This document shows, piece by piece, positions 50,251 through 60,172 of a stretch of DNA of 64,000 nucleotides (positions are counted from its first letter, which is position 1; every line of letters begins with the position of its first letter). Below the pieces are notes generated by a model. The model was given only the letters and a program-made list of their open reading frames with translations. It was not told the DNA's origin and ran no database searches. The translations under genes were made by a program, and so were the position numbers. Location: assembly GCA_963846575.1 (NCBI GenBank), contig CAWJWJ010000002.1, positions 1,024,001-1,088,000 of the forward strand, given 5' to 3'. This stretch comes from an uncultured Nitrospiraceae bacterium (GTDB lineage Bacteria > Nitrospirota > Nitrospiria > Nitrospirales > Nitrospiraceae).

Positions 50251-51357
50251 ATGGCCGTGAATGCCGAGAGCGGGCGATAGGGTGTTGCTGAAGCGAGAAT
50301 CCGAGTTGCCTGGAAGTCTTGATGTCCTTCCTGCTGCGGTGGTCTCGGCCGTCCGGCCACTAACAGACGGTTGTTCTGGACGGCGGAGATGCCGAACGTT
50401 CTGCGTCAGGTAGGGCGTACGGCCGAGGCGGATTGCGTGTGTGTGTTTGAGAACATGTCCTTCGGCCCGGCAGGCTGAGCACGAGCCTGTGCGCGCAATG
50501 GGTCGTTCAAGGAATGCCGTCGCGGTTGATGAACCCGGAACGCCAGGCTGTAGCCTATGAGGAGCGGGAGCCTCAACGGGGGCTGGATCTGTCTGCAAGC
50601 GCTCTCCCCGTATAGGGCCCGGTCAAGGATTTCTCCTGGCTCGAGCAGTGTCTTCTGATGTCGCTTGGCCTTGGATCTGCTGCGGTGTTTCCCATTTTTG
50701 ACGAACGGTCATGGTGGGGTCTTCTCGTTTGTGGAGTGGTTCGGGCGGGGGAGGGTGTGGCTGAACTCGGATCTGGCTGCGCTGCCCGTGGCAGCCGGCA
50801 CGGTGGGGTCCGCCGGCCTCGTGAAGCGGATGTACGGCTTGTATCGAAATGAATCGCAGCCAGCCGAGGTCCTTTCGCTCGAGACGGTCACTGAAGATTG
50901 TGCCTGTGTGCTCAAGTCAAAGCTGGCGCAGCGAAAAGTCATCCTCCAGACCAGGATTGCTCCGACTATTCCGCCGTTGCGACTGGTCCAGCGAGACCTG
51001 CTTCAAGTATGACTGAACCTGGTTCAAACGCGGTGGAAGCCTCGTTGGAGGGAACGATCATCGTGATTGATATCAGCCATGATGAAGACCATGTCCGCAT
51101 CGGTGTGTCCGACCAGGGATCCGGTATCGCGCCTGCCGAACTGCCTCGTATTTGTGAATCATTTTTTTCCGGAACGCGGAAAGCGCACACAAGGAGGGCT
51201 AGGCCTCGGGCTCTCCGTCTCCCACAACCTCCTGCAGGTCATGGGTGGAAAGATCGAGGTGGTCAGTGTCCCTCATAAGGGGTCGACCGTTACCGTGGTG
51301 CGCTCCCCGGCACCGATGACGCAGATGGGAACTCAGACGGAAGGACAGATTCGATGA
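50251..51357 (+). pseudogene. Decayed GAF-domain sensor histidine kinase
   Basis: GAF fragments (VLRQVG..AE.D..CVFEN; PIF...WWG; RVW..SD..AL) and HATPase fragments (LQV*LNLVQ/NAVEA; VSDQGSGI; GLGLGLSVS....MGG.IEV.S...GS) split by stops (50476, ~50613, 51010) and several frameshifts. Confidence 0.8.
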
Positions 51358-52118
51358 TCCACGAGCCAGCGCGTATTTTGATTGCCGACGACGACGAGAC
51401 GTTTCGATTGTCCACCGCTGTTCTCCTGCGGCAGATGGGTTATATCTGTGATGATGCCCAAGATTCGGACGAAGCCGCGAAACACTTGGAGCAGTCCTAT
51501 GATTTGTTGATTGCGGACATCCGTATGCCGGGTAATACTGAGTTAGAATTTCTTCGGTCCGTGCATGACCGCCTACCGGAACTTCCGGTGATCGTTTTAT
51601 CGGGCTATCCTTCCTTGGCGACGGCAATCGCTGCCTTGCGGTTGTCCGTCAGCGACTATCTCTTCAAGCCGGTCGAGTTCGCTGAACTGAAACAAGCCGT
51701 CGCCCGCGCGTTACTGAAGGGACGACTCTTGCGAGCGGTCCGCGATGCCTCTGTTGGAACCGCTCAATTGACTGCTGCGCTGGGTCACCTTAAGCAGGCT
51801 GTCACCGTCAGAGGTGGCGCCGAGCGACCTCCGTTGGTCGAGTGGACCGCCAAACGATATGTGGAGCAGGCCGTCTCACACATCGCACAATTATCGCTGG
51901 TCGTCGGTCAGGTAGTGGGGGGTCTCGAAGAGACCGAGAACCAAACAGCGGACGTCTGCCGAGTCATGCGGTGCGAGCGGTTGGCGGTCTATGAGGAGGC
52001 GCTGGAGGAGACGGTGGAGGTGCTGGCCCGCACCAAGAACGCATTCAAGTCGAGGGAATTGGGCGACTTGCGAAAGCGTCTGGAAACGGTCTTGAAATCG
52101 TCCCGGCGATTTACCTAG
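51354..52118 (+). CDS. Response regulator (receiver + unknown helical output domain)
   Basis: ILIADDD, LIADIRMPG, LSGYP, YLFKP; ATGA overlap with kinase remnant. Confidence 0.88.
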   Translation: MIHEPARILIADDDETFRLSTAVLLRQMGYICDDAQDSDEAAKHLEQSYDLLIADIRMPGNTELEFLRSVHDRLPELPVIVLSGYPSLATAIAALRLSVSDYLFKPVEFAELKQAVARALLKGRLLRAVRDASVGTAQLTAALGHLKQAVTVRGGAERPPLVEWTAKRYVEQAVSHIAQLSLVVGQVVGGLEETENQTADVCRVMRCERLAVYEEALEETVEVLARTKNAFKSRELGDLRKRLETVLKSSRRFT

Positions 52119-52214
52119 CCGATGTCGGATTCGGCCCAGGAGTGGCCTTCAGAGCCTGCCCCTGCATGTAAGCCCCCTGACAACTGGTTGTCTGCTGCAG
52201 GACCTGCCGCGGAG

Positions 52215-52239
52215 GCCGCCATCCGTGCAGGATGGCGGC
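52215..52239. terminator. Hairpin between convergent response regulator and cheW
   Basis: GCCGCCATCC-GTGCA-GGATGGCGGC perfect 10-bp stem; no clear U-tract. Confidence 0.45.
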
Positions 52240-52302
52240 GAACTCCTTCCATCGTAACTGGAACAGGTCTTGGCACGACCCTATGGGCCTGACTGATCGG
52301 TT

Positions 52303-52821
52303 CTAGGCTGCCTCCCGGGCAAGGAGCAGGCGGTTCAAATCAAGGAGGATGAGAAGGCGATCCTCGATTCGTCCCACGCCCTGCATGAATTCTGCACCCG
52401 CCAATGTGCCGACCGATGGGGGAGATTCAATGGCGCTTTTGGGAATGCGCAACACTTCCTCGACCGAGTCTACGACCAATCCAACCAGCTTGGCTTCAAC
52501 GGATACCACGACGATGCGGCTCTCTGTGGTTTGGGTGACACCGGTGAGGCCGAACAGCTTCCGAAGATCCAGTACCGGAATGATCCGGCCTCGCAGATTG
52601 ATCACGCCCTCCACATAATGTCGCGTCTTGGGGACGCGGGTGACCTCCGCAATCCGGTTGATCTCCTGTACCCGCAAGACATCCACCGCGAACTCTTCAC
52701 TGCCGATCCGGCAAATGACCAATTGGCAGAGATCGTCACCCGCGCGCTCGGCCAGACGGTCCGCAGAATGTTCTGCGTCCGCCTGGCCCTGGGCTTGCAC
52801 CTGTTGCTCCATGGCACTCAT
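52303..52821 (-). CDS. cheW: Chemotaxis adaptor CheW
   Basis: V.EI, T.VP, GVINLRG.IIPVLDLR, GLVVDSV; AAGGAGGAG RBS. Confidence 0.95.
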   Translation of the reverse strand: MSAMEQQVQAQGQADAEHSADRLAERAGDDLCQLVICRIGSEEFAVDVLRVQEINRIAEVTRVPKTRHYVEGVINLRGRIIPVLDLRKLFGLTGVTQTTESRIVVVSVEAKLVGLVVDSVEEVLRIPKSAIESPPSVGTLAGAEFMQGVGRIEDRLLILLDLNRLLLAREAA

Positions 52822-52851
52822 GCTGAATGGCTCCTCCTTCCGGTTGGTCCC

Positions 52852-54537
52852 CTAGATCTTGAAACCACCCACAATGCCCTGGAGTTCGACTGCCAACTGA
52901 CTCAGGTCCTGACTGGCCTTCGCGGACTCATGCGCTCCGGATGACGAGTCCTTGGTGACCTTTGCGACCTGCTCGATGTCGCTCGCAATCTGCTGGGTCG
53001 CCACCGACTGCTCTTCCGAGGCGACGGCAATCTGCCGGATCATGTCGGCGCTTTCTGAGACCATGCGTACGATCTGCGAGAGGGCCTCGCCGGTCCGATT
53101 GACCAGATCCACGCCGGCGGTCACCTTCTGCGTCCCTTGTTGCATGGACTCGACGGCACCCCGGGTATCCTGCTGGATCTGTCGAATCATATCGCCGATT
53201 TCCTTCGTCGCTTTGGTCGTTCGCTCCGCGAGTTTGCGGACTTCATCGGCCACGACGGCGAATCCGCGCCCCTGCTCACCGGCACGGGCGGCTTCGATTG
53301 CCGCATTGAGGGCCAGCAAGTTCGTCTGATCGGCAATATCCTCGATCGTTCCCACGATTTCCCCGATCTGATCGGATGACTTGCCGAGTGCAGAAATGAT
53401 CGTTGCTGAGCTGGAGACGGCGTCAGACAGCTGCTGCATGCCGGAAATGGTGGTGGACACCACAGTCCCGCCCTCTTGCGCAGTTTTGACCGTCGCTTGC
53501 GCCAGACCGGCCGCTTTGTTCGAATTTTGTGCTACTTGCCCGACGGTCGTTGTCATTTCCTCCACCGCGGCAGCCGTTTGAGTGGCTCGTGACGTCAGGC
53601 TGTCAGTCCCCTTGGAAATTTCTTCGGCCGTCGCGGACAATTCCACCGACGCGGAGGCGACCTTGTCCGTGACGTGAGCCACCTTCTTGATCATCTGTTG
53701 CAGCTTTCCGATGAATTCATTGAAGTAGTTGCCCATGTGCGCGATTTCGTCGTTGCCCTCACAAGGCACACGCTTGGTGAGATCGCCCTCGCCCTCCGCA
53801 ATATCCTTGGAGATCTCGCTCATCCGTGCCAGCGGCTTCAGCACGATGTTGCGCAGGAGGAAATAGGTCACGGACATGATGATCACGACAATACCCGCCA
53901 TCAGTCCGCCGGTCTGCCACATGGAGCGATTGGACAGGGCAATCGCTTCCCCCATCGGAATCGTGAGGGTCAACATCCCCAGCGTATCGCCGACTTTGTT
54001 GTTGGTATGGCAGCTCAAGCAGGCGACGGTCGTGGCTTTGTCCGCCACGGCCCGCCGGAACGTTTCGACGCCATTCACGTCGTCGCGGCGTGTATAACTA
54101 TCGGCTCCGCTCATAATGGCTCTGATCGCCTCGTTCTCAAAATTGTCTTTCGGTGCATTCATGGGATTCAACGGACTTTGACTGACCAGGCGGGCATTAT
54201 AAGACCCGGTTTTAGACGCTTCCTCTCCCATTTCCCTGACGGCTGTTGCGGGTAATGGAATGGCATCGGGCAGGCCCATGTGGTCCTTGACCACCTGGAT
54301 ATCTCCTCCGGCTTTTGATTTTTTGATTTTGTTCACATAGTTCTGGGTGATATACGCCCGTGTGATCATGATCTGCGTGCTGATGACGTTGGCGCGCCCC
54401 GTCAGCATCGTCCCCATCTTGCTCTCTTCCTGCTGGTACAGGACAAAGAGCCCGAGCATTACAACCAGCAACGACACAGCAAGGATTGATATCGTGAACT
54501 TGGGCCCAATCGTCATATTCTTCATGATGCTCCCCAT
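52852..54537 (-). CDS. Methyl-accepting chemotaxis protein with periplasmic c-type heme (DUF3365-like) sensor
   Basis: Two TMs; CLSCH (CxxCH) in sensor; [55 protein letters not shown]. Confidence 0.93.
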
Positions 54538-54850
54538 GATGCTGCCGACCTCCTCCATTATGATTGATGAAACAACGTGTCGCGCCCACGAGCCAGAGGT
54601 TTGCCGTCCACTCTGAAAGGCCAACCCGCTGTCGCTTCGCACCCGACTTCCATCCCGGCATGTGCCATGCCGCCGATGGTCTACGAACTCTTTGACTACG
54701 GCTCTACTCCTCCTCGCTGTCTTCCTGGCGCATGCATTCGCATGTCACTCCCGCGGGCCCTCTTCACCTGTTGGTATGGGAGGTCGCGTCGGACCGAGCC
54801 CTCGGTGACGAGGGCTCAGTGCGGTTGTTCCGGCCTGCCGGACGTCGAAT

Positions 54851-55831
54851 TCAGGCTGCCTTGCTGGTCTCCTGTGCGGGGGGACTGAGATGAGTGGTTA
54901 GTTTTTCGCGCAGGATTTTTGCGTCGAACTTGGTGATGTAGTCCGATGCGCCGACCATTCTTCCCTTCTCGATGTTGCAGGTGCCTGTGAGAGAAGAATG
55001 GAGGATCACAGGGAGATGGGCGAGCCTGGGATCTGTCCGGATGTGCTTGGTGAGCGTGAACCCATCCATATCCGGCATCTCGATGTCGCTCAGAATGCCA
55101 TGAATCTGATCCACTCGCGACTTGCCTTCTTCCGTGGCCTGATCCGCGAGTTCCTGCAATTTGGTCCAGGCCTCCCCGCCGGTGGTGGTCATGATGTACG
55201 ACATTTCAAAACGATCCAGCGCTTTGCGGATTTGCGTTCTTGCCACGGAGGAGTCGTCTGCAAACAGAATACACTTCGCCTGCAACGCTGGAGATGCGAC
55301 CAGGCCTGCGAAGAGGTCATCGTCGGTCCGGGGGCAGATATCATGCAGCACTTTTTCCACGTCGAGAATGAGCACCATGCGACCATCGTCCAGCATGGTG
55401 ACGGCTGTGACCGCCCCCTTACTATTTTCTCTGACGATGGTCGGCGGCGTTTTGATGGCCGACCAGGAAAACCGCATGATGCGATCGACGCCGGCTACGA
55501 GGAATCCCTGCAGGCTGGCGTTGTATTCGGACACGATCAGATAGGGGGAGGTTGCCGAGAGGCTTGTGTCTGGTTCCAGGTCAGACCCGAGGTTCATGCT
55601 GCTTCTGAGGCCGACGACAGGAACCATCACACCCCTGATATTGGCCATGCCCACGATGCGGCTGTCGGCCTCCGGAACCTTGGTGAGTTCGGGAAGTTTC
55701 ATGACTTCCCGGACCTTGAACACGTTGATGCCGAAGATTTCGTTGGTGCCCAGCTTGAACAGCAGGAGTTCCATTTGATTCGCGCCGGCCAGCCTGGTCC
55801 GGGCATCGATTTCAGTGATGAGATTTGACAT
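54851..55831 (-). CDS. cheV: Chemotaxis protein CheV (CheW + receiver)
   Basis: ELLLF.LG, FGINVFKVREV, DVEK; ADDS..AR, SDIEMP.MDGF, HSSL, TKF. Confidence 0.95.
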   Translation of the reverse strand: MSNLITEIDARTRLAGANQMELLLFKLGTNEIFGINVFKVREVMKLPELTKVPEADSRIVGMANIRGVMVPVVGLRSSMNLGSDLEPDTSLSATSPYLIVSEYNASLQGFLVAGVDRIMRFSWSAIKTPPTIVRENSKGAVTAVTMLDDGRMVLILDVEKVLHDICPRTDDDLFAGLVASPALQAKCILFADDSSVARTQIRKALDRFEMSYIMTTTGGEAWTKLQELADQATEEGKSRVDQIHGILSDIEMPDMDGFTLTKHIRTDPRLAHLPVILHSSLTGTCNIEKGRMVGASDYITKFDAKILREKLTTHLSPPAQETSKAA

Positions 55832-55911
55832 GGTTCCTCCGATGACCTCCGCTCTCATTCATGGTGTTTGTTGGGTGATACTTGCCAGGCCTCTCGCCGG
55901 CGTCTCTTGAT

Positions 55912-57783
55912 CTAGGCGGCAGCTCCAATGGCATGCCAGGCGCGGGCGTTCTGGACCAGTTCGGAGGTGTCGAGGATGAGGACCACCTTGCCCTCGCCGG
56001 TGATCGTGGCGCCCGAGACGCCCTTGACGGTTTCGAGATAATCCCAGATGGACTTGATGACGACCTCCTCCTGGGAGCGCAGCTCGTCGACGACCACGCC
56101 GACCCGGCGATCGCCCAGGGCGGCCACCACGACATAGAACCGCTCGCGGTCGGCATCGGTGGGAATGTCGAACTCCTGCGCCAGGCGGATCAGCGGCAAC
56201 ACCCGATCGCGCAGGTGCAGCACCTCCCGCCCGTTGATGGTCTTGATGTCGCTCCGGGAAATGCGGACCGCCTCGATGACGGTACTGAGGGGGATGGCGA
56301 AAATCGACTGTTCCACCTCCACCATCAGGGCCTGGATGATCGCGATGGTCAGGGGCAGCTTGATGATGATCTGGCTGCCCTTGCCCGCCTCGGATTCGAG
56401 GTCGACGCTGCCGTTGATCTTCCGGATGTTGGTGCGGACGACATCCATGCCGACGCCGCGGCCGGACACGTCGGTGACCTGCTCGGCCGTGCTGAAGCCC
56501 GGCAGGAAGATGAGGTTCAGGACTTCGCGATGCTCCATGGTCGCGAGCTCGGCCTCGCTGATGAGGCCCTTGGCCAGCGCCTTGGCCTTGATCTTGTCCA
56601 CCGGAATGCCGCGCCCGTCGTCGTTGATCCGGATGACGATGCTGTTGCCCTCCTGGCTGGCGGCAATGGTCAACTGCCCCTCGCCGGGTTTGCCCTTGGC
56701 CTGGCGTTCCGCCGGGGTTTCGATGCCGTGGTCGATGGCGTTGCGGACCAGGTGGACGAGCGGGTCGCCGATTTCGTCGGCCACCGACTTATCGAGTTCG
56801 GTCTCCTCGCCGCGCATCTCCAGCCGCACCTGCTTGTTCAATTTCTGGGAGAGGTCCCGGACCATGCGCGGGAGCTTCGCAAAGACTTTTTTGATCGGGA
56901 GCATGCGCGTCTTCATGACGGCCAGTTGCAGATCGGTCGTCACCAGGTTGAGTTGGGCCAGGGTTTCGCTCAGGACGCGGACCTGCGGATCCGACTCATG
57001 GTTCTGCTCGAGCTGCGTGCCGATCTTGATCAGGCGGTTGCGGCCGAGGACCAACTCGCCGACGAGGTTCATGACGCTGTCGAGGCGCTTGGTTTCCACG
57101 CGGATGGTGGCGTCTTCTTCGGCCGGTTTGGGCTGTTTTTCCTGTTTGTGGAGGGCCTGATCCAGCGCGCGCTCGGTAATGGCCTTGGCCTGGAGGAGAA
57201 TCTCGCCCAGGGGGGTCTTGGGGTCCGGCTGATGTTGCTGCGCATTGAGGGCATCGAGCACCTGATCCTTGGAGGCCAGGCCCTCGGTCACCAGAATCTC
57301 GCCGAGCGTGGGGGCCGGCTCGGGCGGGGCGACGGGGGGGCCGGCCGCCGGGGCGGCCGCGGGCGGCGGCGTGGCGGGCGCCGCTGCGCCGGACTTCCCC
57401 GCCAGAATCTCGTCCAACGTGGCGGCGATGGCCGCGGTCGCGACATGGGTGTCGGTGCCGGACTCCCGGATGTCGGCCATGAGGGCCTTGATGACATCGA
57501 CGGTCTCGAGAATGACGCTGATGATGCGGGGGCTCACGGCCATGTCGCCCTGCCGCAGTTTGTTCAGAATGTTCTCGCCCCGATGGGCGACGTCCACCAG
57601 ATGGGTAAACCCGAGAAAACCGGCCGAGCCCTTCATGCTATGCATGGCCCGGAAGATCTCGTTGAGCAGGGCCGTGTTGCCGGGGTCGGCCTCCAACGTC
57701 ACGAACCGCTGATCCAGCACCTCCAGCATCTCGTGCGACTCGGTCAGAAAGTCGTTGAGTATTTCCTGCATTTCATCGCTCAT
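55912..57783 (-). CDS. cheA: Chemotaxis histidine kinase CheA with MshEN-like insert
   Basis: IFRAMHSMKG (Hpt), IRV...RLD..MNLVGELV, HLVRNAIDHG, SGRGVGMDVV, C-terminal CheW domain. Confidence 0.97.
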   Translation of the reverse strand: MSDEMQEILNDFLTESHEMLEVLDQRFVTLEADPGNTALLNEIFRAMHSMKGSAGFLGFTHLVDVAHRGENILNKLRQGDMAVSPRIISVILETVDVIKALMADIRESGTDTHVATAAIAATLDEILAGKSGAAAPATPPPAAAPAAGPPVAPPEPAPTLGEILVTEGLASKDQVLDALNAQQHQPDPKTPLGEILLQAKAITERALDQALHKQEKQPKPAEEDATIRVETKRLDSVMNLVGELVLGRNRLIKIGTQLEQNHESDPQVRVLSETLAQLNLVTTDLQLAVMKTRMLPIKKVFAKLPRMVRDLSQKLNKQVRLEMRGEETELDKSVADEIGDPLVHLVRNAIDHGIETPAERQAKGKPGEGQLTIAASQEGNSIVIRINDDGRGIPVDKIKAKALAKGLISEAELATMEHREVLNLIFLPGFSTAEQVTDVSGRGVGMDVVRTNIRKINGSVDLESEAGKGSQIIIKLPLTIAIIQALMVEVEQSIFAIPLSTVIEAVRISRSDIKTINGREVLHLRDRVLPLIRLAQEFDIPTDADRERFYVVVAALGDRRVGVVVDELRSQEEVVIKSIWDYLETVKGVSGATITGEGKVVLILDTSELVQNARAWHAIGAAA

Positions 57784-57862
57784 AACCCACCTCAGTTAAA
57801 CCCAATTGTGCCGCCGGATCATGGCCGGCTCCCGTGGTGTGAACCTATGTATGAGGAATCCA

Positions 57863-58243
57863 CTATTTGAAGATCTTGTTGATCTTTTCCTGCATCGTCT
57901 CGGCGGTGAAGGGTTTGACCACGTAATTGCTCACGCCGGCCTTGACGGCTTCCATCAGATTCTCTTTCTGCGCCTCGGCCGTCACCATCAACACGGGGAT
58001 GGCTTTCAGCTTCTCGTCGGCCCGGATGGCACGCAACAGGTCGATGCCCATCATGACGGGCATATTCCAGTCGGACACGACGAAGCCGTAGTTGTCGGCC
58101 TGCAGTTTCGTCAAAGCGTCCTGACCGTTTTCCGCTTCTTCCAGGTTGTTGAAGCCGAGTTGTTTGAGGATATTCTTGACGATCCGCCGCATGGTGGACA
58201 TGTCATCGACGACGAGAATTTTCATATTGAGGTCTGCCGGCAT
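57863..58243 (-). CDS. cheY: Chemotaxis response regulator CheY
   Basis: [39 protein letters not shown]. Confidence 0.97.
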
Positions 58244-58325
58244 GTAGCGTTCTCCTATTGTCGCGCAAGCGTGCTTCGTCGGACCGGTGGATCCTGTTCA
58301 CTGTTGAGTCGAGATGGAGCCGGGC

Positions 58326-58378
58326 AATAAAAAAGCGCAACCTGCAATCTCAACTGTGAGACTGCGTGAGTGCGCCTT
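58326..58378 (-). terminator. Intrinsic terminator within the 5' region of the cheY operon
   Basis: Minus strand AAGGCGCA..GCAGTCTCA-CAGT-TGAGATTGC..TGCGC followed by TTTTTTATT; no minus-strand gene upstream. Confidence 0.65.
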
Positions 58379-58783
58379 CCACTTGCAGGTCTGTCTCCTG
58401 CCCGCTCAGGCCGGCCGGATCTGCAACCCGACCATGCTCGTTATGTAGGAGGACTTCTCGGTCGGTTATTGCGGAAACTTTACCGGCGGCCCGGTGGAGG
58501 CCTTGCGGCGGGGGCAGGCCGGCCTGGTTTTCCAGGCTGAAGTGGGCGGAAGACAGAGCCGAACCGGCTGCCAGTAGACCAACCGTCCACCGGGGGAAAT
58601 GGCGGACTCAAGTAGGCAGATGAGTCCATCATCCCCTATGTGGGAAGAGGTGAGGGTGGTTCCCCAGTAGGGGCTACCATTCCAAGCCTCCAAGGGTCGT
58701 GTGAGATGGCGCTGTCACTGTTTCCGCTGCGAGGCTGCATGCTATAGTACGCTCCTTTCTGAACGTAACGAGTGAGGATTTTC

Positions 58784-60172
58784 ATGAAGCAGATCATGAT
58801 GGTCGGAGCCGGTTCAGTAGGCGGTTTTTTCGGGGCGCATCTTGCCAAGCAGGACCCCAACGTGTCGTTGTTGCTTCGTCCGGGAACGTTGGCGGCGGTG
58901 CAGCGCCGGGGCCTCACGATCAAGAGCGCCAAGGGAAATTTCACCGTCCATCCGCCGGCCGCCTCCGACCCGCGACAACTGGCCAGGCCGGATCTCATCA
59001 TCCTTGGCGTGAAGGCCTACGACCTGGACGAGGTCATGGCACAGCTGGAGCCGGTGCTGACCGACCGGACCGTCCTTCTCACGCTGCAGAACGGCATCGA
59101 TACGGAGGATCGCATTATTGCGCGACTGCATCGCGACTGTGTGGTCGGCGGGGTGGCCTTCATCTATTCGAAGATCGTGGAGCCGGGGGTGATTGAACAT
59201 TACAAGCGCGGCGGAGTGGCGATCGGCGAACTGATGGGGCACAAGAGCGAGCGTCTCCTGCAGATCGCGGAGATCTTCAAGCAGGCCGGCATCCCTTGCC
59301 AGATCAGCGAAGATATTCGGAAGAGCAAATGGGAAAAGATGTGCTGGAATTGCGTCTTCAACCCGGTCACCGTGTTGATCGACGACAAGGTGGCGAAAGC
59401 ACTCGACCATCCGGAAATGGCCGGCGTGATCCGTCAGATTGTCGGCGAGGTCGCAGCCCTGTCGGCCGCGTTGAAGGTTCCACTTGCGCCGGATATGGCC
59501 GAGAAGGTGGTGAAATGGACGCAGGAGCTCCGCGACATCCACACGTCGATGTACGACGACTGGAAAGCCAAACGGCCGACCGAGATCGACTATTTGAACG
59601 GCTACATCGTGCGTCTGGGACGGGAGCTGGGCATTCCGACCCCGGTCAATGAAGCGCTGACGGCCATGGTAAAGGCCGTCACGGAAAGAGAACCGTCCGG
59701 TCCCGGGGTCATCCGGATCGATGGCGCCGTCGTTCAGCCGGTGTCCCTGACCCGTGCGGCGTTATCGCAATTGCCGCAGGAACATCACGTCCCGGACGTC
59801 AGCCAGGTGATGCCGGCCATGCGGGGCCGGGCGATCAGGGTCAAAGGCCTCCTCGAAGTTCCGGCCCTCGCGGTCGATGCCGACCACGTCACCTTCCATT
59901 CCGTCGACGGCCAATATGCCGCGACCTTGACGCTTCAAGAGGCGCAGAGCTTCGGGTTGCTGCTTTACGAACTCGACGGACAGCCCCTGCCGGACGGCAA
60001 GGGCGGTCCCTATCGATTGGTCGCACCCGGCTTGGGCGATCTCTGCGCGAATGTGAAGGGTGTCGGGCGGATCGAATTGCGGGTGGGTCGCGGAAAGGAT
60101 ACGAGGCCGTCGGTCAGGCCTCCCGAGTGCACGCCAGGCGGGAACAGCCGGGGAGACTCAGGTGGCGGATGA
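58784..60172 (+). CDS. panE: 2-dehydropantoate 2-reductase fused to a molybdopterin-oxidoreductase-like domain
   Basis: GAGSVGG, VKAYD, LQNG, KWEK...N...N, SM..D, TEIDYLNG; C-terminal GGPYRLVAPG...NVK....IEL. Confidence 0.85.
   Translation: MKQIMMVGAGSVGGFFGAHLAKQDPNVSLLLRPGTLAAVQRRGLTIKSAKGNFTVHPPAASDPRQLARPDLIILGVKAYDLDEVMAQLEPVLTDRTVLLTLQNGIDTEDRIIARLHRDCVVGGVAFIYSKIVEPGVIEHYKRGGVAIGELMGHKSERLLQIAEIFKQAGIPCQISEDIRKSKWEKMCWNCVFNPVTVLIDDKVAKALDHPEMAGVIRQIVGEVAALSAALKVPLAPDMAEKVVKWTQELRDIHTSMYDDWKAKRPTEIDYLNGYIVRLGRELGIPTPVNEALTAMVKAVTEREPSGPGVIRIDGAVVQPVSLTRAALSQLPQEHHVPDVSQVMPAMRGRAIRVKGLLEVPALAVDADHVTFHSVDGQYAATLTLQEAQSFGLLLYELDGQPLPDGKGGPYRLVAPGLGDLCANVKGVGRIELRVGRGKDTRPSVRPPECTPGGNSRGDSGGG

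Follow-up and report, generated by a model that had tools for sequence, protein, structure and literature searches.

The question raised by this locus is what kind of element precedes the chemotaxis genes of an uncultured Nitrospiraceae bacterium, and by what it is read. The window, that is, the whole stretch of DNA analysed, comprises 64,000 nucleotides of this genome and contains a leader located between divergent panE (58772+) and the minus-strand cheY-cheA-cheV-mcp-cheW cluster (Table 1). An earlier sequence-only reading had proposed a novel attenuator or riboswitch, or else an sRNA gene. What stands of this proposal is an uncatalogued terminator/antiterminator leader controlling cheY; as for the rest, comparative evidence speaks more for reading by a protein than for a free sRNA or a riboswitch with a metabolite ligand. 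Judging from sequence comparison, the leader is probably a phosphorylation-controlled, protein-mediated antitermination switch read by the co-occurring response regulator (51354-52118).

Table 1. Features of the leader and of its neighbouring genes (positions in the window).
Feature	Coordinates	Strand	Basis or remark
panE, divergent from the cheY leader, nearest recognised upstream gene	58772-60172	+	
Predicted sigma28 (FliA)-like promoter, TAAAG ... CCGAGA	58455..58482	-	conservation with G026 begins here
Predicted leader RNA, ~120 nt	58326..58446	-	start placed from the promoter
5' hairpin H1, sequence-variable, covarying	58413..58433	-	
Conserved 38-nt irregular antiterminator hairpin	58374..58411	-	
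Intrinsic terminator	58329..58378	-	5' arm = AAGGCGCA
cheY, first gene after the leader	57863..58243	-	NCBIfam PRK10610 above cut-off
cheA with MshEN-like c-di-GMP-binding motif	55912..57783	-	
cheV-like (CheW + REC)	54851..55858	-	
MCP chemoreceptor (Tll0287-like sensor, HAMP, MCP signal)	52852..54642	-	
cheW	52303..52821	-	
Response regulator: REC, helical hairpin and unclassified C-x4-C...TKxxF[KR]S[KR]EL tail; candidate RNA-binding antiterminator	51354..52118	+	
Broken histidine-kinase gene, at the site of the cognate kinase in relatives	50454..51348	+	tblastn with the G233 kinase; stop counts

The regulator gene is found 6 kb from the leader RNA and faces the far end of the chemotaxis cluster, so the leader RNA is not the terminator of that gene here. 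The histidine-kinase remnant next to it (50454-51348) contains stops in all three frames, with its pieces lying in different frames; this gene has decayed, so the regulator is orphaned in the window's genome. The C-terminal part of the regulator shows 72% identity to the copy of G233 (L171), from another genus, versus ~33-40% to two compared copies from its own genus, a difference hinting that the 51354-58482 cluster was acquired laterally. Residues 191-217 of CheA, between the Hpt and dimerisation domains, match an MshEN-related c-di-GMP-binding motif (44.1 vs the NCBIfam cut-off of 38). The Tll0287-like sensor domain of the MCP chemoreceptor is a lead for the sensed signal, and PanE carries an extension of ~160 residues that weakly resembles a SorT sulfite-dehydrogenase domain (E 5.6e-4).

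The conserved element is real but, on the evidence of the alignments, shorter than first described, as it covers only 58326-58482 of the minus strand instead of 58326..58630. Among 39 genomes of the genus, a long match to the whole region was found in G026 only, covering just 58490-58318 at 91%; since this match stops at 58490, the 5' half (58490-58630) is genome-specific. The conserved half, on the other hand, has matches in 39 of the 371 genomes of the window's family. Regarding structure, the stems that had been listed are all present in the sequence where they were placed, and a 321-nt stretch of the region folds better than its shuffled versions (z -5.99, 0/100). The long stem thought to close the element did not hold up, because the inverted repeat was equalled by 82/1000 shuffles and by 4/93 upstream regions of other homologs. 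Neither the multi-stem 5' element nor its c-di-GMP-like words, both of which precede the predicted promoter, are conserved. Thus the structural conservation expected in relatives exists for a hairpin/terminator unit, but not for that long stem and those motifs.

All 30 aligned family loci have the same layout: the sigma28-like promoter comes first, followed by a 5' hairpin of variable sequence, the conserved core and an overlapping terminator whose 5' arm starts inside that core. The promoter was called with the general sigma28 consensus, and the pattern is found upstream of 28/33 family copies and of 48/93 copies overall, versus 24/5000 random genome windows; the spacer in the window is atypical, being one base longer than in most homologs. 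FliA is encoded in the window's genome, and sigma70-like promoters are often seen before the RNA copies of other phyla. The predicted leader RNA, single copy in this genome, folds better than all of 200 shuffled versions (z -3.78). Within it, H1 shows two-sided changes in 8/8 pairs, with 75% of cells paired; in some distant copies it is weak or seems to be absent. The 38-nt hairpin that follows is formed by P1 (GCCU/AGGC), an irregular internal loop with an invariant C-G and G.A, P2 (GCAGG/CCUGC) and a variable apical loop. No shared reading frame for a leader peptide is apparent in the alignment of leaders (A1). A simple sigma70/terminator scanner called nothing at the leader, and the terminator was probably missed because of its long, bulged stem.

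The intrinsic terminator that had been noticed about 80 nt before cheY is real: the segment 58378-58329 has z -5.04 (0/200 shuffles) and ends 86 nt before the cheY ATG. In line with the earlier statement that no minus-strand gene lies upstream, the nearest recognised gene there is divergent panE. Its 5' arm, AAGGCGCA, contains the P1 3' strand, so that the antiterminator hairpin and the terminator are mutually exclusive. In a nascent RNA of 75 nt the predicted fold consists of H1 and P1/P2 (-16.2 kcal/mol for the core), and in the full-length leader it is the terminator (-23.1), which captures the P1 3' strand. The antiterminator had previously been assigned to ACCTGCAA, pairing with TTGCAGGT in the 3' arm of the terminator, but a 7-of-8 complement test was passed in just 1/76 terminator-bearing copies; the alternative fold is made instead by the GCCU/AGGC pairing, which takes the 5' arm. 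A terminator beginning at the P1 3' strand is present in 76/94 copies versus 32/1993 random GGC sites; of the two folds, the terminator has the higher stability in 73 of those 76.

Several features of the core point to conservation at the RNA level. On 95 copies, 85.7% of the cells are paired and 17/19 pairs show two-sided changes, a level of pairing reached by 0/500 shuffles, in an alignment (A6) that was fitted to the structure model. P1 is almost invariant and consequently shows little two-sided covariation (3 cells). At core pairs G.U exceeds A.C by 61 to 14, and the apical loop varies from 5 to 65 nt without sequence conservation (7-8 nt in 76/94 copies, 6 nt in 1/94); both the G.U excess and this range of loop lengths argue for an RNA rather than a DNA palindrome. 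In five relatives (L140, L141, L142, L169 and L100, from G198, G194, G218, G230 and G264, respectively) decay has jointly affected the P1 3' strand and the terminator but spared the promoter, a pattern in which the genes downstream may be expressed as if constitutive.

The candidate reader is a response regulator of 250-280 residues in the family loci, present as a single copy in the window's genome. In most family loci the RNA is located directly after the regulator gene and before MCP, HD-GYP or sensor genes, and a kinase gene is directly upstream of the regulator in 35 of the 58 loci with a picked upstream gene. The phosphorylation site is largely preserved (D55 in 92/105 proteins, K105 in 92/105), and D55, S83 and K105 are intact in the window's copy. 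The tail is predicted to comprise a helical hairpin, then C-x4-C and, after it, two helices; the two cysteines occur without exception (105/105 proteins), and the basic TKxxFKSK...R motif is nearly invariant (T, K, F, K, S, K, R). For this tail, 1150 clusters at 50% identity score E≤0.001. No Pfam family or solved (PDB) sequence matched the tail, searches of the ESM Atlas and by fold also left it without a family, and no DNA-binding Pfam family came near cut-off in any of 93 tail sequences. The fold search, which also bears on likeness to the ANTAR fold, retrieved nothing more specific than generic helical hairpins (best Z 7.3, rmsd 4.8, 59 aligned); a new fold should not be deduced from these blank searches. 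When modelled as a homodimer, the regulator scored 0.42 vs 0.00 for the best control, a mark reached by 20/30 solved pairs and 1/23 single chains; its runs agree on at least 51% of contacts with pLDDT ~61. The model lends marginal support to dimer formation alone, and the C-x4-C regulator is possibly a metal-bridged dimer.

The association between this regulator and the RNA was approached from both sides. Starting from the regulator, the protein motif by itself was used to collect 79 loci, nearly all of other phyla (Planctomycetota, Holophagaceae, Chloroflexota, KSB1, Zixibacteria, deltaproteobacteria and others), and they were searched with a covariance model (R1) built solely from 30 family RNAs. 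Matches were obtained in 39/79 loci at E≤0.01 and in 54/79 at E≤10; 64/65 matches at E≤10 lie on the strand of the regulator, and 47 control loci (137,914 bases) gave 0 matches. Starting from the RNA, a core-only pattern without the terminator had matches in at least 121 stretches of metagenome DNA, and 80 of these were retrieved. An overlapping terminator was found in 72/80, and the regulator was located 78-658 nt upstream on the same strand in 25/80, or in 18/47 where at least 1 kb of upstream DNA was available; it was absent within the fetched DNA of 55/80. In two metagenome lineages the RNA is present but there is no regulator within 4 kb of it, one lineage being formed by L293, L301, L311, L314, L326 and related soil contigs, and the other by L295, L303, L331, L334 and L344.

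At the level of genomes, the best 34-51 RNA candidates per genome were scored, model R2 having been trained partly on loci from the genome groups tested, and related genomes are not independent. With these provisos, the family of the Holophaga record (G395, 101 genomes) contains both partners in 25 genomes, RNA only in 2, regulator only in 1 and neither in 73, and the order of the Anaerohalosphaeraceae record (G396, 141 genomes) contains both in 15, RNA only in 1, regulator only in 6 and neither in 119. In the window's own family the regulator is present in 47/53 RNA-bearing genomes, including 43/43 of those at least 90% complete, vs 81/371 overall, the list of RNAs having been compiled after dropping 35 false or weak matches. 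Of the 61 genomes matched by a loose IUPAC pattern, 31 were dropped as false: inspection of five placed them within ORFs and showed no terminator, and the others were judged from the matched string alone. The remaining four were weak blastn matches, one of them inspected. The regulator was not detected in G476 and G510 despite an intact RNA, nor in G473, which has a degenerate RNA copy. Conversely, the regulator lacks a nearby RNA in 26/67 family loci (E≤0.01), many of them in the window's genus with the RNA degenerate or missing, and in 6/21 cases in the G396 order. Co-occurrence is confounded, both because kinase, regulator and RNA often form one cassette and because of kinship.

Some RNA copies are unlinked to the regulator and constitute dispersed regulons, with five copies in G443 and eight in G398, which has four regulators. 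Besides, in L198, L202, L204 and L210 the RNA precedes the regulator gene itself. The genes downstream of the RNA are mostly involved in signalling and include the regulator; 43 of 54 picked ORFs were scanned, 19 of them being without a family at threshold. In the planctomycete loci L203, L209, L211-L214, L216, L219, L226 and L448 the RNA precedes a gene of 100-145 residues with no Pfam match at E≤1e-6, which by eye resembles an Hpt protein.

A working model can be proposed for this switch. Transcription would start ~7-10 nt after the -10 box, and H1 and P1/P2 would be the first structures to fold in the nascent RNA. By default, the more stable terminator would take AGGC and stop RNA polymerase ~86 nt before cheY. 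When a kinase phosphorylates the REC domain, the regulator would dimerise, and its basic C-terminal helices would then bind the irregular internal loop and hold P1; we infer this binding from co-occurrence only. With P1 held, read-through into cheY-cheA-cheV-mcp-cheW would take place. As the cognate kinase is broken here, the input would have to come from another phospho-donor, or the circuit may be decaying.

Known systems offer partial parallels. PMC12591593 describes ANTAR as the RNA-binding output domain of two-component response regulators, and in PMC3369931 its targets are two hairpins with hexanucleotide loops carrying A1 and G4. As these two sources describe them, ANTAR regulators (EutV/EutW, AmiR, NasT/NasR, Rv1626) are like the present one in having a REC domain, a long helical segment and a small C-terminal domain, usually beside a kinase, and their RNA targets also overlap an intrinsic terminator and form dispersed regulons. 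However, PF03861 was not matched by the regulator sequences (0/27 and 0/93), the present tail is a predicted two-helix hairpin after C-x4-C, and in place of two hexaloops with A1/G4 the present RNA has a single irregular hairpin, the loop of which is not conserved; an hhalign comparison with the genome's ANTAR sequence, a single-sequence template, gave a probability of 0.2.

The CAT-RAT systems of BglG, SacY and LicT are alike in that the base of the hairpin overlaps the terminator 5' arm (role of RAT as given in PMC12591593). Their leader also sometimes precedes the regulator's own gene, as the present RNA does in some loci. RAT is a single short hairpin with internal loops, a shape shared by the present RNA, and a conserved RNA structure exclusive with an intrinsic terminator is common to ANTAR targets, RAT and this leader. 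On the contrary, the genome yielded no CAT_RBD and the regulator no PRD match: PF03123 was not detected in this 99.9% complete genome by a search that detected 4/14 controls, nor on the regulator. In addition, control here would be exerted by a His-Asp phosphorelay, and instead of sugar operons the targets comprise genes for chemotaxis and signalling. By analogy, then, the leader would work like EutV/ANTAR in its protein logic and like RAT in its RNA logic, but by the features compared it belongs to neither.

As for riboswitches, c-di-GMP-I, c-di-GMP-II and other Rfam classes share the aptamer-over-terminator layout before chemotaxis and HD-GYP genes. The sequence-only reading had been unable to assign a family, and the Rfam scan bears this out: no known riboswitch family was matched in the window or in 36 homolog loci, and nothing relevant was found at the element with the Rfam covariance models at gathering thresholds and at E≤10. 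The c-di-GMP-I core, of GGMAA/GCAAA type, is absent from G026 and other homologs, its look-alike words being upstream of the promoter. Resemblances to 6S, SRP, RNase P, tmRNA, ZTP, glycine, c-di-GMP-II and k-turn elements were dropped for want of an Rfam match. In the openly accessible literature searched, no account of the RNA or of the tail domain was found, and a word search of the main text of PMC11109978 and PMC8632094 gave no chemotaxis or response-regulator motif. The RNA motif and the output domain are thus apparently uncatalogued, their mode of action probably being a variant of protein-mediated antitermination.

It could also be considered that the leader is a new class of ON riboswitch, in which P1 is stabilised when the internal loop binds an ion or a small molecule such as a second messenger, and the regulator just shares the signalling cassette or controls the ligand. 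The conserved non-canonical internal loop over a terminator would suit such a role, as would the MCP, HD-GYP and PAS kinase targets, which are typical of second-messenger regulons, the c-di-GMP motif in the CheA of this locus, and the intact RNA of G476 and G510. Nevertheless, a ligand sensor would not require the regulator, whereas the RNA is found in just 2/75 and 1/120 regulator-negative genomes (3 among 242 tallied), and its single hairpin, with no junction or pseudoknot and no Rfam match, is small for an aptamer. We consider this explanation unlikely; if the regulator is not the reader, the RNA would still be a strong new riboswitch candidate in many phyla. It is quite improbable that the leader is a stand-alone sRNA, for instance a decoy titrating the regulator, with the downstream genes served by other promoters. 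Its own promoter and terminator and its defined size of ~120 nt agree with an sRNA, but most copies are followed by a same-strand signalling gene, and the finished RNA would lose the conserved hairpin, which cannot coexist with the terminator. Moreover, the five relatives with joint decay have kept the promoter before the downstream gene while losing the P1 3' strand and the terminator.

It might further be supposed that the dyad is a DNA site for a regulator dimer acting as roadblock or activator, with the terminator overlap being secondary. In favour of this are the dyad symmetry of the core, the marginal support for a dimer from the model, and the fact that DNA is the usual target of response regulators. 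The G.U to A.C ratio (61 to 14) and the 5-65 nt spacer speak against it, as do the position downstream of the promoter, the terminator overlap in 76/94 copies and the 93 tail sequences free of any DNA-binding Pfam family near cut-off, and this possibility appears very remote. More doubtful still is the reading of the RNA by a different protein, either an unknown factor or the genome's ANTAR protein: an ANTAR-domain protein is indeed encoded elsewhere (G000:C2:596662-596817, L255), but the RNA has no dual hexaloop (1/94 apical loops of 6 nt), no CAT domain was found in the genome, and the distribution of the RNA tracks the C-x4-C regulator.

Antitermination by the C-x4-C regulator remains the preferred explanation. 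Held with slightly less confidence, though still considered rather likely, is its extension to a second, ANTAR-independent family of RNA-binding response regulators, in which the uncatalogued C-x4-C/TKxxFKSKEL domain recognises a so far undescribed antiterminator hairpin. In many phyla that have been little studied, chemotaxis and signalling operons would thereby be placed under a termination checkpoint downstream of sigma28. If this is true, two-component regulators would have a second RNA-binding output domain besides ANTAR, with an exact 38-nt target and a predicted ON/OFF logic for it. A function would be provided for a widespread regulator family that databases label just as 'response regulator', an orthogonal phosphorylation-controlled RNA switch would become available, and the control of chemotaxis genes would include a checkpoint at the level of transcription termination.
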